From: Saccostrea echinata
Taxonomy: Eukaryota
DNA: 64,000 bases
Direction of reading: 5' to 3'
Assembly: GCF_033153115.1 (NCBI RefSeq)
Contig: NW_026889803.1
Coordinates: 62,062,001-62,126,000, forward strand
Part shown: positions 40,264 to 48,700 of the stretch, piece by piece
How positions within the stretch are numbered: the first letter of the stretch is position 1
Layout of the letters: each line of letters opens with the position of its first letter
Notes under the pieces: model-generated
Database searches by the model: none
What the model was told of the DNA's origin: nothing
Seen by the model: the letters and a program-made list of their open reading frames with translations, nothing else
Translations under genes and position numbers: made by a program

Positions 40264-43200
40264 TTACTCCACAGACCACTCCTCGAAGAAATCATTGCCT
40301 TTATTATCTACAACAATGAAAGCTGGGAAGTTCTCCACTTCAACTCTCCACACAGCCTCCATTCCTATTTCAATCAAACAATCACAAAATTATCAGTTTA
40401 TAAATTCCTCTTTCTTCTTATATGTCTAAACAACAACTAACTAACACATTATTCAAAATAAAAATATCAAGAGGTTGGAAATTAACTAGATTAGAATAAG
40501 TATTTTTACCTAATTCTGGGTATTCCAGCTGCTCCACTTTCTTGATACAGTTTTGTGCCAATATAGCAGCTGGTCCACCAATGGACCCCAGGTAGAATCC
40601 ACCATTGCCCTTACAGGCCTTTGTCACCTGTGTCAATCAAATAATACAGTCTATTATAACTAAATTATCTTTGGAAATGTTTGAAACATAATTTATTTCA
40701 ATTAAACCTTGACAAAGTGTAAAATATGACTACGTGTTCAAATCAATGTGAAACATGAATTTACCTATATACTTATGTGTAAAACATGAATTTACCACTT
40801 TACTTCTGTGTGAAATGTGTATTTACCTGTCTATGTCTGTGAGAGACATGTATTTACCTGTCTATGTCTGTGAGAGACATGTATTTACCTGTTTACTTCT
40901 GTTGCCTTTTGCCAACATAACCATGCTTCCTCCTGCTTTCTGAAATTCATCTACATACGAGTCCATCCTCCCAGCTGTTGTAGGACCAAAAGATCCAGAC
41001 GGAAGTCCCTAGATGTGTGAAGAATCACAAGAATTTAGTTAATTCACATCCCAATTACATGTATTGTGTACAGTAAAACACACTAATGGTGAGGACCCGG
41101 GTATGAACAATATCAATTTGTTATAAACATTATAATTCATTATATCTGAGAAGTTCATGATAAGTACATTTTAAAATTATGAGGAGTGACAATCACTCTG
41201 CTGTAAGGGTGAATTCATTATAAGCTTGTTCATTGTATCTGTACATAGAACTTGTAGCTGTAGAGACTACACTGACCTCTGGAGTCTTGGCTGGTCCTGC
41301 ATAATATACCGGGTGGTCCTTGAAGTACTGTGGCAGAGAACCCTCTGTTCTCAGTCTCTCCTGAAGCTTGGCGTGGGCTATATCTCGGGCTACTATAAGG
41401 GTACCTGACAAACTTAACCTGGTCTTCACCGGATACTTGTCTAATGATTTCAGTATCTTATCCATACCATCATTTAAATTAACCTGTGGGGAAATGGAGA
41501 ATAACTTTCAATCACAATGACCAAAAGTGTTTCAAAAACACCAATCTGAACCAAGAATGAAAAGGTATTGTCCCTTATATGTACATGTACTATTGATGGA
41601 TTCATTCATAAATTTAGTAATGTGGTTAAGAAATTATTAAAGTAATATGAGCTGCATTTTTGAGAATTTAATTTTTCTGTTAAAATGTGCTATTTTGATA
41701 AATTTCTATGTATTTTGAATCTTTTTGATCAATTTGACTTAAATAAAGTATTTAATAATTTCAGAAGAAAGATTTCTTTACAATCGAATATATAGTATTA
41801 TATAAGGAATCAATATTGTACAGGATGACAATAATGTAATTCTGCTTCAACCAAAGCTTAAAAATAGTTCTTTCATCGCAAATATGAAAAACAAAACTTT
41901 ACAAACAGTTTGTTTTCCTGTCATTGAAATAGTTAATTACAATTTGCAACAAAAATTTCCGCCATCAAATTTGCAGCTCATATTGCTTTAAAAATTATGG
42001 TAAAACCCAAGATCATCATCAGTTAAAAATTAATTTATTTTAGTTATTTAAATACATGAGGCACAGACCTGAACAACCTCTGTAGTGAGATCTTTCTCCT
42101 GAACCTCTGGCATGTACTTTGAAGGGTTTGTCTCCAGTTGCTCAAGGAAGACTCCATCTTCTGTTATTTTCCCTAAAACCTGAAGGAATTTTCAACAACT
42201 ATTAATAAAACAACTATATTATATGAGCTAAAACAGAGTGCATGTATTAAAATCTTAATTTAATATAAAGTTAAGTAGGTTCTCTCAGTCTGAAGTGTAC
42301 ATTTTGTAAAACTTTCAGCTACAGGTTGAATTTCGGTATCTCGAACACTGATATCTCAAATACCATGGATATGTCGAAGTGAATTGGAAATCCCAACCAC
42401 TTATTCTTTATGTATTTAACCCTTGATATCTCAAATACTGGGATATCACTAAGTTTTTTCTCGGTCCCATTGAGTTCGAGATAACGTGGTTTAACTGTAT
42501 TTAGTATCTCACCTGTCTGTCAGCTGAACAGGACACGCCTATTCCTACTGGACAGGAAGCACCGTGACGAGGCAGTCGCACCACCCTCACATCATGACAG
42601 AAATATTTACCCCCAAACTGAGCCCCAATTCCTGTCTTCTGTGTCAATTCATGGATCTTCTTCTCCATGTCTAAGTCACGGAAACCTCTTCCGTGTTCAT
42701 TTCCTGTAAAATATTTCCAAGTTTCAATAAGTTCATACTTAAAATAGAAAGGCTAATTTAATACCTCAGAAATAGTAATGCTCTTAATTGTTTACCTGAC
42801 TTGAAGATGCTATCAAGGTATTTGGTGGATGCTAATTTCACAGTTTTTAAGTTGAATTCTGCTGAAGTTCCTCCTATAACAATGGCCAAATGATAAGGTG
42901 GACAAGCAGCTGTACCTAATGTCTACAATTGAGAAGTAAAAACAAAAAGAACAAAATCTTGTCAAACAAAAATGCCATTCCTATTAATTATTAGAAAAAT
43001 GTACTAAAAAGACATTTTAACCTATGTTTTATCTTTGACAAAACTACTGTTTCAGGTTAAGGGGACTTTCTTTACCTTTATTTTCTCATTGACAAAAAAT
43101 CAAAAATTTTCTGGCTTTTCAAAGGCTTTCTTACCTTTATTTTCTCATTAAAAAAAACTCAGATTTTTTTCTGAGTTGTAGAGGGCTTTCCTGCCTTTAT

Positions 43201-45091
43201 TCCTCATTGACAAAACTCATAAGTTTTTCTGAGATGAGAAAAGTCTTACTTACCTACTTACCTTTTTTTCTCATTAACAAAACTCATGTTTTTCTGGGTT
43301 GAGGAGGGCATTCTCACTTATTTTATCATTGAATTGCATAAGCTTTTCTAGGTTAAGGAGGGCTTTCTTTCCTTTATTTCTCATTGATAAAATTCTTCAG
43401 TTTTTCAGGGTTGAAGGAGGCTTTATTACCTTTATTTTCTCATTAACAAAACTCATCAGTTTTTCAGGGTTGAGGAGGGCTTTTGTTTGCTGATACAAGA
43501 ATGTCTTGTTGGCTGACCCTCCTCCTTTAGCAATGAACAGGAAGTCGTACTGATTACTGTTAGTGGAATAAATTTCTATCTGAGCTGGCAGGTTGGTACC
43601 AGTGTTTGCCTCTTTATACATATCCAGTGGTGCAACCTTTAACAAACATTTTTTTTAAATTAAATTTACTGACAGTATTTGTCAAATGAGTTAATATAAA
43701 GTGAAGAAAACCAGGCATTACTCAAAAAAAAAATCACAAATTTATCATCATCATCATTTTCCAACTAAAATGAATAAATATTTTTTTTATTTTTAAATTT
43801 AGTCATTAGTTAATCAAAGGTAGATTTATAGAAACTTTTTTCAACAAAAAGTGAGAACAAATGAACATATATAGAAACATAAATATTTGACTAATACCTG
43901 TGAATATCTTAGATTTTTCTTGGTGTAAGTATTGTATACACCTTTGGATAATGCCTCGGCATCATTTCCATCTGTCCAAACATACTGACCTTTTTTACCT
44001 AATGAAGGAGAATCAACAGAATTCAAATTGATTATATCTAATGCAGGAGTGATAAGTGTAAGGATAATTACAATTTTATCGAAAAATTGGTATTATTCTC
44101 TCAAAATTCTATTTACAGATGTAATTTCTAAAAACTTACTATCAATTCATTTGCATGTATCAGTATATATTTTTCAGTATTAAACAAATTGCTAAATGTA
44201 ACACTAACCCATTATAATTGCTGTGCCTGTATCCTGACACCCAGGAAGTACCATTCCTGCTGCAACATTAGCATTTTTTAGAAATTCAAGAGCAACATAA
44301 CGGTCATTCTCTGATGCCTCTGGATCCTTCAGTATATTGGATAGTTGCTGTCAAAGATATATAAAATCATTTTTATGCTGTGTAGAAACTGTAAAAAAAA
44401 ATTTACTGCTCTGCCCCTGATTAAAAATGGACAAACTTACAAGAAAAACCCTTACTTTTCCATCTTTCCTATGTTAATGATAAATTTTTCTCATTTTTTT
44501 TTTTTTTTTTACAAATTTACCTGCAGGTGAGCTGGTCTTAATAAGTGGGCCACATCAATCATTGCTTGTTCTGAGATCAAAGTTAGAGCCTCTGGTTCAA
44601 CATTAAGACATTTCTTCCCCTTCACCTCAAACGTAGACACATAGTCACCTAAATACAGAGTTAAATCATACATAAATTTAAAAAAAAAATTATAATTGGA
44701 AACTTTTTGTAAATTATAACAAACGCAAGAACCTATTAAGATACAATACTAAATCTTAACTTACTACGCCATGAAGTAGTTAAATTCATACAGAAGTATC
44801 AAGATTTCATTAAATCAAATTCAATTTGTCTCTATTAGTCATATTGCAATACCACTGAAATGTAATATCTGAAAAAGTCAAAACAATTCTGTACAACATC
44901 AGCATTGATTATATTCTAAAAACCATACCTGTTAATTTCTTAAATGGGGTATCATGGGGTCTTTCGAATTGCAAGATGTCCTGGTAGAAGAATGGCTTCA
45001 CTGCAGTGGCAGTTGTTGCCTTATGTCGCAGTGAACAGCGACACACTGTCTGGAGGACAGATAGCAATTTACCATTGCTGTTCATGGTCAT
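40264..45091 (-). CDS. Class I (4Fe-4S) fumarate hydratase, FumA/FumB type, with mitochondrial-type leader; 12 exons, 570 aa
   Basis: Exons 45091-44929, 44648-44521, 44347-44209, 43998-43898, 43636-43430, 42922-42796, 42703-42513, 42179-42069, 41483-41277, 41008-40889, 40627-40510 and 40364-40264 join in frame (1713 nt). Motifs: [92 protein letters not shown]. Confidence 0.97.
40755..40900. repeat. 31-bp minisatellite containing copies of the fumarase exon 10 donor
   Basis: atttacctgt at 40821, 40852 and 40883 (the real junction), with degenerate copies near 40760 and 40790. Confidence 0.88.
41069..41258. mobile_element. Degenerate pogo/Tc1-like MITE in a fumarase intron
   Basis: Begins TACAGTAAAACAC, has internal ttataa/ttcattata subrepeats, and has an eroded right end. 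Confidence 0.45.
42320..42499. mobile_element. pogo/Tigger-like MITE with TA target duplication
   Basis: TA|CAGGTTGAATTTCGGTATCTCGAAC...GTTCGAGATAACGTGGTTTAACTG|TA. Confidence 0.78.
43050..43485. repeat. ~57-bp minisatellite derived from the 3' end and donor of fumarase exon 5, about 7 copies
   Basis: ttacctttattttctcattaacaaaactc...gggttgaggagggctttc at ~43072, 43131, 43191, 43258, 43314, 43368 and 43426 (the real exon end). Confidence 0.9.
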
Positions 45092-45354
45092 CTTTATAAA
45101 AATACAATGGTCTTTATACTAAAGGTATGTACAAGCTGTGTCACATTTCCTTATCCAGCTTAATGTATTCATAAAAATATTCTTGAAAAAGGAGAAACAT
45201 ACACTTTTCTTATTACGTGTGAAATAGTTAGCAGTATAATAAAGTAAAAAAAGTCGCTTGTATAAAGTCTTATAAACTACTATTTTTATGAAGATTCGCC
45301 GAATCTAGAAAAAAAAACTGTAATCATGGTTATGTAGACAACATAAATACTTAC

Positions 45355-45701
45355 CTGATTACCACCGTATACCGTAGGCCAAAGCTTTCCAAGGGTAACA
45401 GATAATTTTCTTTACTCTAATATAAGAAATAAAGCAATATCGTACAAAAAATGTTCAGCTGAATACTACTGACACGAATCTTTTAAACTAAAACGTCAAA
45501 AAATTCTCATCTTGTGGAGGCCCTCATTCGTCTGCTGTCCTTGAACTATTTGCAGGTCTGTTAAACGCTTCCTTACATGACAAAACAAAATCGATAGTAC
45601 AAGCGTTTTGAAGACGCGAGTATACTTTCTACTTTCACTTTCAACATGTTTTCTGCATGATGTGATGATGAGGAAGTAGTTCAGGTACGATAGACGGAAC
45701 C
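45355..45701. promoter_or_regulatory. Putative bidirectional promoter and 5' UTR region
   Basis: A minus-strand donor (CAG|GTAAGT at 45355) marks a non-coding fumarase exon; the ATG of the + gene is at 45702. Confidence 0.6.
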
Positions 45702-48700
45702 ATGGACCAACAAGAGAAACGAGAGGAGCCACTGACGTTTGCAGACCTGGGAATAACTGCAGCTCCGAAGCTAGAAGAAGGGGCATTAGGCAAGGTGCAT
45801 GTCGATATCCTTCCTCTGTTTTTTTCTTGCTTTGTAGGCGTAGTTGTACAGAATTCTCAGTAGTTAACGAGAGAATCAGATCGTTCTTGCAATATGTATA
45901 ATGCGTGTTTAAAAAGCTTTGATACTTACAACATGTGTTTTGAAGTTTCGGCCGTATGGGTAGATTCTAGTTTTCTTAACTGCAGGTCAGAGTGATCAAA
46001 TGGCTAATGACATGTTGTCGATGATATATTAAAATTAAATATAACAATTAATAACACAATTTAATTTACAATTTGTTTATTATTTATGATCTTCATATCA
46101 ACAAATATGAATCAATTCATAATAAAAAAAAATTAATGCATCAATTTCCATGAGTTTACTGTGACAGTGTCACACATGTATACTGTACATGCGTCTAGTC
46201 TCTGGTGATACTGGAAATACAATTCTCCTTTGTTTTAAAAATGAGACCCGAACAGCTGTCAATGATTCCATTGTTGGGCCACATCCTTTCCACACTTCCC
46301 TGTCTTTTTATTTATAACATTCAATTTTTTAAATTTCTTTTTTAGTATATTCCAAAGTAAAATATATATAAATCTTCAATTTTTTTTCTTTTGAATTCAG
46401 TGAGGACAGCATCAGTGTCATTTTTTTAAAAAAAAGTTTTGACATTCTTATTCTAGTGTACATGTATTTATCAGGGATGATTTTCACAAGTCATTTGAGT
46501 CATCAAAATTCAACTAACATGTATCAGCTCAAATACTTTGCTTCACTGGTCCACTTAATTAGCAAGGATTGATATATTAACTAAAAAAAAAAGGTGGATC
46601 CACCTGACTTGAATATTCATATAGTACTAATCAAACTTTAAAATTTAATAAACCACAGCCCACTGGCCATCACTTCTTTTAGTCTTGGTTTGTTATTACC
46701 CTAGGTATAAAATCTTGTATAAAATAATGAACAAAGTCACATGTTAAATAAAATATCTCGTGATTTGAAGTAATATCTTGCACTTGCACACAGGGAAGTG
46801 AGAAAAAAAATCAATGTTGAAATGGTATCAATGTACAAGTATTTAATTCACTTAAGTGTACCATATGTTTCATGTAGAATATAGGTGGATACAGTTAATA
46901 TACACTGTACTATGTGTCATCTGTTACCTTAGTGATGTTTTAACTTTATCAGTAATGCTGACACTGTTTAATAATCACTTATAAATTATAATAATGATAT
47001 AAACAAGGGAAACCAATACACACAATTATCTCTGATATGTGACTTGTCAGATATATTTTCCCTGTTTGCAAAATGTCACTGTCATTCATTAGATACTTGG
47101 TATTTCATTCTCTGCCACTTGATATGATTTTCTAAACTGTATGAAAGTTAACCTACTTTTAATAGTGCCACTTGTTACTAAAAAAAAGCCACAAAAGTTT
47201 TGGATTGATTGAATTACTGTAAACGTACATAAATACATGGGAGCGAACTCAAAATTTAGAGCAATCTTCCTCTTCATCTGATCAGCGCAATCATAAATTA
47301 GCGCACACGAGTCTTGAAAACGACAAGTATTGATTTATAACATACAATGTATATTAACGTGTACAGAAGTAGCACGAAAAGCGCTTGAATATGACCACCG
47401 CTAAAATAAGTACGTTTACAGGATTATTTTATCAAATATCAGCTTCTATGAATGAAAGTAATGAGACTGTTAAGGCCAGGTACGGGTACACAATGATTTA
47501 CCATTACCCACTTATTATGCTTTCCACCTAGAAATTTTGTATACAACTGTTCATATTTTTATGCACAGAAAAGACCTCTGAAAGATTTGGAGAAGAAAGA
47601 AATAGCATTTGCTGTGATATCAATACTCAGTTCTTTAGGCGCCATTGGCCTGGCAATTCAACGATTAGCCACCACCAGTAATGGAAATCCAGACTTCACA
47701 TTCGCCCTTGTCATCATTGTTAATGCTGGTACATAGATAAGACTGTATCTGAACATTCTTTGAATACTGTAAAACTTTACTTAGCAGAATCTTATTTCAG
47801 TGTCTTATATTCCATCAATTCAATTAAAAACCGCAAAACTGTGTGGTGTTGAATACTTTATTTATACATTTGATTTCATATCTCTAATTATAAAGAATGT
47901 CCGACTTGACCTGCTTTTTTTTCTTGCCAGTGAAATCACAAGTCTCGTTGTGAATTATTAAAAATGAAATATATGTCATTTCAGTTTTTTGTATGTATTA
48001 CGTTTTCCACGGCCTTCTTGCGGAGCGACCCTACGAGATCATCGTCATGGTGCTAGCGACCATCGCTGTTACAATTTATGTCATCGTTAATTTTATTCTT
48101 GGCCCAAAGAAGGATGTCAAAATTGTGAGTATCAATAGACCAGTGAGAAACCTTGTTTATAAACCTCATAAACCTTTTTACATACTCCAAAAACCGAACA
48201 CTATTGCATCTTCGCTAGCCAAAGGTGTCTGATCCACTACTTACAAACGGTTTGTGAGGAGAGTAGCGGATCAGAAACCCTCGGCTAGCGAAGATGGGCA
48301 TATTATAACTAAGACGTGATTTGCGCATTAATATCTATAAAATGACACTAGGTTTGTGACGAAAGGAGACGTTGACCCACCCCATACTGACACCACCCCC
48401 CTCCCCCACAACAGTCCTCTGTTTTGTGATGCTATGAATTTTACGACTTGGGTCTGTTGCATTTCCTGTGACACAGTTATTGGAAGGTGTTTACAAAAAA
48501 TACATTCAGCAGTAAGGAGATGGGTGAACAAGCCGTGCAGAATGCCTATAGCTTCATATATATATAAATCATATTTAATTTGTGAATTTAGTATTTAGAG
48601 TAAAGTTTCCATTATTGAAATTTATGAAATTATGACAAACAAAACTTTTCTGAGGAAAATTTTCTCGGCAAATATTATTCTTTTATTAAAAAATAATGTG

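Follow-up and report, generated by a model that had tools for sequence, protein, structure and literature searches.

The gene examined here lies on the minus strand of a 64,000-nucleotide (nt) window of the Saccostrea echinata genome, the window being the whole stretch of DNA analyzed, and encodes a predicted class I, iron-sulfur-type fumarate hydratase (FH). We consider it probable that this spliced, single-copy gene goes back by vertical descent to an ancestor shared by animals and choanoflagellates and that its product is imported into mitochondria, where it is likely the main or only fumarase, because the class II enzyme of the same genome starts without a presequence. The gene itself is already known, as it is annotated in RefSeq, and class I FH of animals is already in print. 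Our search of the open-access literature, with subscription journals outside it, found no study of class I FH in oysters or other bivalves.

Translation and splice-site mapping of the window place the ATG at 45091 and the stop codon at 40264-40266. The 12 coding exons are separated by 11 GT-AG introns of 92-585 nt and yield an uninterrupted product of 570 amino acids (aa), which shows 0/570 differences from RefSeq XP_061163068.1 (Saccostrea, named class I fumarate hydratase), an automatic annotation for which no functional test was found; orthologues are annotated in S. cucullata, Magallana/Crassostrea, and Ostrea. Spliced contigs from four public runs contain the exact joints of 10 of the 11 coding introns. 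These runs represent at most three samples from two studies, and their RNA status is taken from the intron-less contigs, with none of the holders of spliced contigs on record as RNA; contig depth cannot rank expression, and the runs carry no condition labels. Intron 2 lies at a skipped repeat, where the joint is absent among the rows shown and one contig crosses with an exon-sized insert. The 570-aa protein and 11 introns described in an earlier note on this DNA are thus upheld by translation, splice-site mapping, and spliced contigs. An additional 263-nt intron lies in the 5' untranslated region (UTR), with its acceptor AG abutting the ATG and its joint present in all four runs, and the gene therefore extends past the upstream end at 45091 given in that note. 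The upstream exon has no in-frame ATG after its last in-frame stop, so the start codon at 45091 stands.

The assignment to class I is supported by domain, structure, and residue comparisons. PF05681 and PF05683 are matched in one chain (271 and 284 bits against cut-offs of 25 and 22.2), and 9 of the 12 exons match one or the other in collinear order. The Leishmania FH (LmFH) structures 6mso and 5l2r are matched with an E value of about 1e-226 over residues 22-566. In an ungapped alignment to 5l2r, the cluster ligands C134, C253, and C347 correspond to C133, C252, and C346 of LmFH, and 10/10 catalytic or substrate residues of LmFH (Q134, D135, R173, G216, H334, R421, T467, T468, R471, and K491) are kept; against the list of LmFH active-site residues in bioRxiv 2022.09.03.506457, the count is 13/13. 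Across 45 holozoan sequences, 12 active-site residues are present in all 45, and T468 (LmFH numbering) is present in 44. The motifs CQDTG, ACPPY, and SCSADR, previously read as cluster binding, therefore coincide with the three ligand positions, and the class I identity proposed with them is confirmed. On the strength of these comparisons, the protein would be a single-subunit class I (4Fe-4S) FH that binds a cluster, is labile to oxygen, and interconverts fumarate and L-malate.

Within the wider family, the NCBIfam models for FumA and FumB (NF011919 and NF011920) match residues 31-566 with 862 and 861 bits, below their enterobacterial cut-offs of 1105 and 1094; the oyster protein belongs to the family without being FumA or FumB proper. 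An ESM Atlas search returned fumarate hydratase clusters exclusively, and one class I locus was found in the genome (G000). As the family includes tartrate dehydratases, and as Escherichia coli FumD has an altered substrate preference (bioRxiv 158956), it could be argued that the main job of the enzyme is the hydration of another dicarboxylate, such as mesaconate or tartrate, instead of fumarate. We regard this as very improbable, since the 13 LmFH substrate and cluster residues are unchanged and the FumA/FumB models score best, ahead of the FumD-type model PRK15392 (761) and the tartrate dehydratase models (76 and 61).

The distribution of close relatives places the gene in an old animal lineage. 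Among the best 120 of 7,997 scored matches in the full-length class I search, 61 are attributed to named animal species, one to the choanoflagellate Mylnosiga, and 58 to no named organism. The animals come from at least 10 phyla (molluscs, annelids, nemerteans, flatworms, rotifers, priapulids, cephalochordates, hemichordates, echinoderms, and placozoans), with 70-94 percent identity outside Saccostrea; no vertebrate, arthropod, nematode, or cnidarian occurs among the named rows of these best 120. The rarity implied by the earlier note is consequently overstated, given this breadth and the 81 of 1,277 animal proteomes in which class I FH is reported and attributed to repeated transfer (PMC13655608). 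The main text of that paper makes no mention of molluscs, oysters, or anaerobiosis, and its supplements may list oysters. Class I FH has also been described as sparse in multicellular eukaryotes (bioRxiv 158956).

In a FastTree analysis of 184 rows, 44 animals and Mylnosiga form one clade with a support of 99, and in an IQ-TREE analysis of 63 of the 184 rows, 20 animals and Mylnosiga group at 99/99, the position of Mylnosiga inside the clade being unresolved. The one apicomplexan included fell outside this clade. Because the animals and the choanoflagellate form one clade, a vertical origin before animals is favored over a recent transfer, and one origin before the animal-choanoflagellate split, followed by losses, appears likely from the trees. 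The claim of repeated transfer for the patchy eukaryotic class I genes is thereby qualified, in that a single origin with repeated loss fits the animal part of the pattern. The next branch holds eight alphaproteobacterial rows at 91/89 (not starred), drawn from the best 30 of 135 matches among 401 genomes of that class, a sampling that favors this result. A mitochondrial, alphaproteobacterial origin of the class I gene is plausible and weakly supported; a single ancient transfer before animals is possible in its place. The origin left open by the earlier note is, as such, less open, given this single clade. Protein-representative clusters added no named protists; they were mostly fragments, and of the eight looked up, seven belonged to clusters with no name and one to a cluster with an Acetobacteraceae member.

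That oysters or molluscs recently acquired the gene from bacteria, or that the assembly is contaminated with bacterial DNA, could be proposed from the identity to bacterial proteins of up to 74 percent and from the multiple transfers of class I into eukaryotes argued for in PMC13655608. Such an explanation is hardly credible here, as the 11 coding introns are spliced in transcripts, animal genes stand on both flanks (a DCX/EML-type gene and a DUF7789 gene), the orthologues span at least 10 phyla, and the oyster protein belongs to the clade with the choanoflagellate instead of being nested among bacteria apart from other animals.

The predicted location of the class I enzyme follows from its N terminus. 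The first 31 residues contain four Lys or Arg and no Asp or Glu, with a hydrophobic moment of 0.65, and KPFFYQ begins at residue 32, in agreement with the basic, acid-free leader of about 30 aa noted earlier in front of this motif. By a crude charge-count rule, a basic leader of at least 15 aa is present in 43 of 45 holozoan class I proteins, and five of five bacterial class I examples start at the core. It is likely, judging from these sequences, that the enzyme is imported into mitochondria through the leader. In many organisms with both classes, class I and not class II is predicted to be mitochondrial (bioRxiv 158956), so this pattern has, in broad outline, already been published. Proteomics has detected a class I protein in a snail, listed in a table (PMC6281880).

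The other half of the argument comes from class II. The fumC exons map to two near-identical loci, G000:C2 and C9, and the exon set is complete; the RefSeq class II protein matching this genome scores 760.8 against the fumC cut-off of 664.75, and the equivalents of the catalytic residues H188, S318, K324, and E331 (as named in PMC13655608) are kept. The class II coding sequence probably opens with an exon that consists of the ATG alone and is joined by splicing to the core, and roughly 2 kb separate it from the end of the upstream gene. Among the ATG-to-donor candidates in this gap, 22 in one copy and 21 in the other, no leader-like exon common to both was found. Among the 120 class II matches listed, 35 are oyster-type (6 with a species name and 29 from Logan); 32 of these are full length (464 aa), all 32 start at the core without a presequence, and the other three are truncated. 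The RefSeq oyster class II isoforms, at 445-476 aa, likewise have no basic leader; if the mitochondria of oysters rely on class I, RefSeq is probably mistaken in labeling oyster class II proteins "mitochondrial". Among the same 120 matches, class II proteins of vertebrate, tick, Nematostella, and amphioxus origin carry a basic leader.

The oyster-type proteins also differ within the core. GHFELN (E. coli 357, human 404) is replaced by GHFQLN, with Gln in 35/35 oyster-type and Glu in 85/85 other class II matches; the change is located at G000:C2:7960220 and in the C9 copy. A reading of this change as loss of the catalytic Glu331 was rejected, as Glu331 is the final residue of PTQCE and is intact, and class II is thus not shown to be crippled.

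The surroundings of the class II gene deserve separate description. The gene upstream, which has no Pfam match, is probably ZFPL1-like. A block spanning at least 20 kb, with the class II gene and this neighbor in it, occurs on two contigs (G000:C2:7959000-7978999 and G000:C9:54223600-54243599); the copies share 98-99.7 percent identity along most of the 20 kb compared and represent either a segmental duplication or an uncollapsed haplotype. In Mytilus, class II FH models from five species (660-827 aa; P0365, P0367, P0368, P0369, P0371, and P0317) carry an N-terminal CENP-B/Tc5 DNA-binding module at the position of the presequence, and the 365-aa CENP-B/Tc5 part is also seen on its own among Logan proteins. 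Either read-through splicing or a merged annotation accounts for this arrangement; if genuine, the fusion would be a DNA-binding fumarase, of interest given the role of fumarase in DNA repair.

Several points weigh against class I as the vertically inherited, main or only mitochondrial fumarase. On the phylogenetic side, the 63 rows of the IQ-TREE subset were hand-picked to thin near-duplicates and analyzed under LG+G4 without a mixture model, the bootstrap did not converge (0.984), the trees hold few protists, one apicomplexan, and no Leishmania sequences, and the choanoflagellate is represented by one transcriptome protein. With regard to location, the leader was scored by charge count, the 5' end of class II in this genome is taken from gene models and database proteins, and mollusc class II sampling consists of oysters and Mytilus alone. 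Amphioxus has basic leaders on both classes, so the division of labor is not general, and searchable papers yielded no enzyme assay of an oyster protein. Class II could also reach mitochondria by an unannotated leader exon, a non-AUG start, or an internal signal. In E. coli, FumC backs up FumA when oxidants or a lack of iron have damaged the cluster. It is conceivable that the two oyster enzymes are redundant isoenzymes in this manner, both in mitochondria, with class II arriving by a missed route; its intact catalytic residues, the leader on amphioxus class II, and the diverse mechanisms of dual targeting reported for eukaryotic class II (PMC13655608) are consistent with this. We nonetheless think redundancy rather unlikely, as a leader is found in 0/32 full-length oyster-type class II proteins, most of them from Logan contigs, and no leader-like exon is common to the two class II copies.

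With class I as the main or only mitochondrial fumarase, a working scheme can be proposed. The class I precursor would be imported through its basic leader, which would then be cleaved. After import, C134, C253, and C347 may hold a 4Fe-4S cluster, and D136/H335 may serve as the acid and T468/R422/R472 as the base, as in Leishmania FH; the residues are conserved, and the chemistry is transferred from that enzyme. In normoxia, the enzyme would convert fumarate to malate as a step of the aerobic Krebs cycle. When the shell closes or the animal is emersed, it would run in reverse, from malate to fumarate, for rhodoquinone-linked fumarate reduction. Class II would meanwhile handle cytosolic and nuclear fumarate. 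The class I gene would already have been present in the ancestor that animals share with choanoflagellates, would have been passed on vertically, and would have been lost in lineages such as vertebrates. The anaerobic step of this scheme draws on coq-2 (G000, C29:44472023-44473966, minus strand), which has tandem exons of the e-type (Leu, Ser) and the a-type (Phe, Ala) by the exon criteria for rhodoquinone synthesis in PMC7434440; with a rhodoquinone-type exon present, the same class I enzyme would supply fumarate in anoxia.

It could instead be speculated that class I is an anoxia-specialized second mitochondrial fumarase, induced by hypoxia for malate dismutation, with class II as the aerobic enzyme. 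The oxygen sensitivity of the enzyme class (bioRxiv 2022.09.03.506457), the rhodoquinone-type coq-2 exon, and a proposal of the same idea for trematode class I FH (PMC5257007) speak for this. We judge it improbable, as oyster class II has no presequence and the distribution of class I is not restricted to rhodoquinone-using lineages. Rhodoquinone is described in nematodes, flatworms, molluscs, and annelids (PMC7434440), and class I orthologues occur outside these four phyla in echinoderms, hemichordates, amphioxus, Priapulus, and Trichoplax; because phyla without reported rhodoquinone have class I too, an anoxia-specific reading is weak. The passages on anaerobiosis in the Alvinella genome paper do not mention fumarase. 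A sea star gene labeled fumA goes down under sediment burial, although this is a label only and possibly not the host class I gene (PMC12154441). Further evidence against anoxia specialization comes from a nematode. The fumarase concerned, Caenorhabditis elegans FUM-1, is presumably a class II enzyme. It is the enzyme used in that animal for the anaerobic step (PMC8659336). The anaerobic succinate role suggested in the earlier note therefore holds as plausible for the second direction of a housekeeping enzyme, as indicated by the class II N terminus and the coq-2 exon, and not as an anoxia-specific function; the bivalve context given in that note holds.

A bolder extension falls just short of an even chance in our estimate: that in true oysters the fumarase step of the Krebs cycle is carried out wholly by an oxygen-labile iron-sulfur enzyme of pre-animal ancestry, with the human-type enzyme cytosolic and carrying a fixed Glu-to-Gln change in a motif that is invariant elsewhere. 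If true, oyster mitochondria would have a second aconitase-like weak point, which oxidants, nitric oxide, metals, or reoxygenation after emersion could switch off and which would control aerobic flux and anaerobic succinate formation alike. Should oyster mitochondria rely on an iron-sulfur fumarase, textbook assumptions derived from vertebrates, with their stable class II enzyme, would fail for this farmed animal of the intertidal zone, in which anoxia alternates with reoxygenation.

The features of the class I gene are collected in Table 1.

Table 1. Features of the class I FH gene in the window, listed from its 5' end
Feature	Position	Strand	Evidence
5'-UTR exon	45355..45480 (upstream end approximate)	-	joint 45091-45355 in 4/4 runs; donor CAG/GTAAGT
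5'-UTR intron, 263 nt	45092..45354	-	contig joints and translation
Coding exon 1: start codon, 31-aa leader (basic and acid-free; predicted mitochondrial presequence), first part of the mature enzyme	44929..45091	-	
Coding exon 2	44521..44648	-	intron 1 joint in contigs
Coding exon 3: CQDTG, cluster ligand C134, Q135, catalytic acid D136	44209..44347	-	domain match, structure alignment
Coding exon 4: R174	43898..43998	-	domain match, contigs
Coding exon 5: KGGGS, G217	43430..43636	-	domain match, contigs
Coding exon 6: ACPPY, cluster ligand C253	42796..42922	-	domain match, contigs
Coding exon 7: H335, SCSADR with cluster ligand C347	42513..42703	-	domain match, contigs
Coding exon 8: inter-domain linker	42069..42179	-	contigs
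Coding exon 9: C-terminal domain, R422	41277..41483	-	domain match, contigs
Coding exon 10: T468, T469, R472, K492 (catalytic base network)	40889..41008	-	domain match, contigs
Coding exon 11	40510..40627	-	domain match, contigs
Coding exon 12 with stop codon	40264..40364	-	domain match, contigs
3'-UTR, at least to 40048	40048..40263	-	contigs run on from exon 12 to 40048-40085

Repeats are found at several places within the gene. At 43066-43483 in intron 5, a degenerate 59-nt unit repeated in tandem about 6.6 times overlaps the 3' end of exon 5 and its donor, and low-depth contigs in the runs span this intron unspliced. Introns 7 and 8 (42325-42500 and 41640-41990) contain high-copy interspersed repeats, with many contigs showing loose ends, and a 31-nt tandem array (40747-40902) spans the donor of exon 10. 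On one flank (45355-45800 and 47497-48229), the DUF7789 gene, on the plus strand, appears to start head-to-head, no more than a few hundred bases from the fumarase 5'-UTR exon, an arrangement that suggests a shared bidirectional promoter. On the other flank, a large plus-strand gene with long charged exons (18131-39500), containing a doublecortin domain (30260-31012) and EML beta-propeller exons (36415-37888), converges on the fumarase 3' end.

Comparison with known systems places the oyster enzyme among its relatives. It shares the single-subunit, two-domain architecture of Leishmania class I FH (6mso and 5l2r). Kinetoplastids have class I alone, from separate mitochondrial and cytosolic genes (bioRxiv 158956), whereas in the oyster a single class I locus is accompanied by class II. 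Plasmid-borne E. coli FumB is about 66 percent identical and of the same family; the oyster protein differs from E. coli FumA and FumB in its leader and introns and branches apart from them in the tree. Flatworms (Fasciola hepatica, Hymenolepis, and Echinococcus) have an animal class I FH, with trematode orthologues in the same clade as the oyster protein. In two tapeworms class I is the sole class (bioRxiv 158956), whereas the oyster keeps class II. Class I FH has been called Platyhelminthes-specific and proposed to act in the reverse step of malate dismutation (PMC5257007); the clade of animals and a choanoflagellate described here qualifies the claim of flatworm specificity, which matters for the use of this enzyme as an anthelmintic target near snail hosts.

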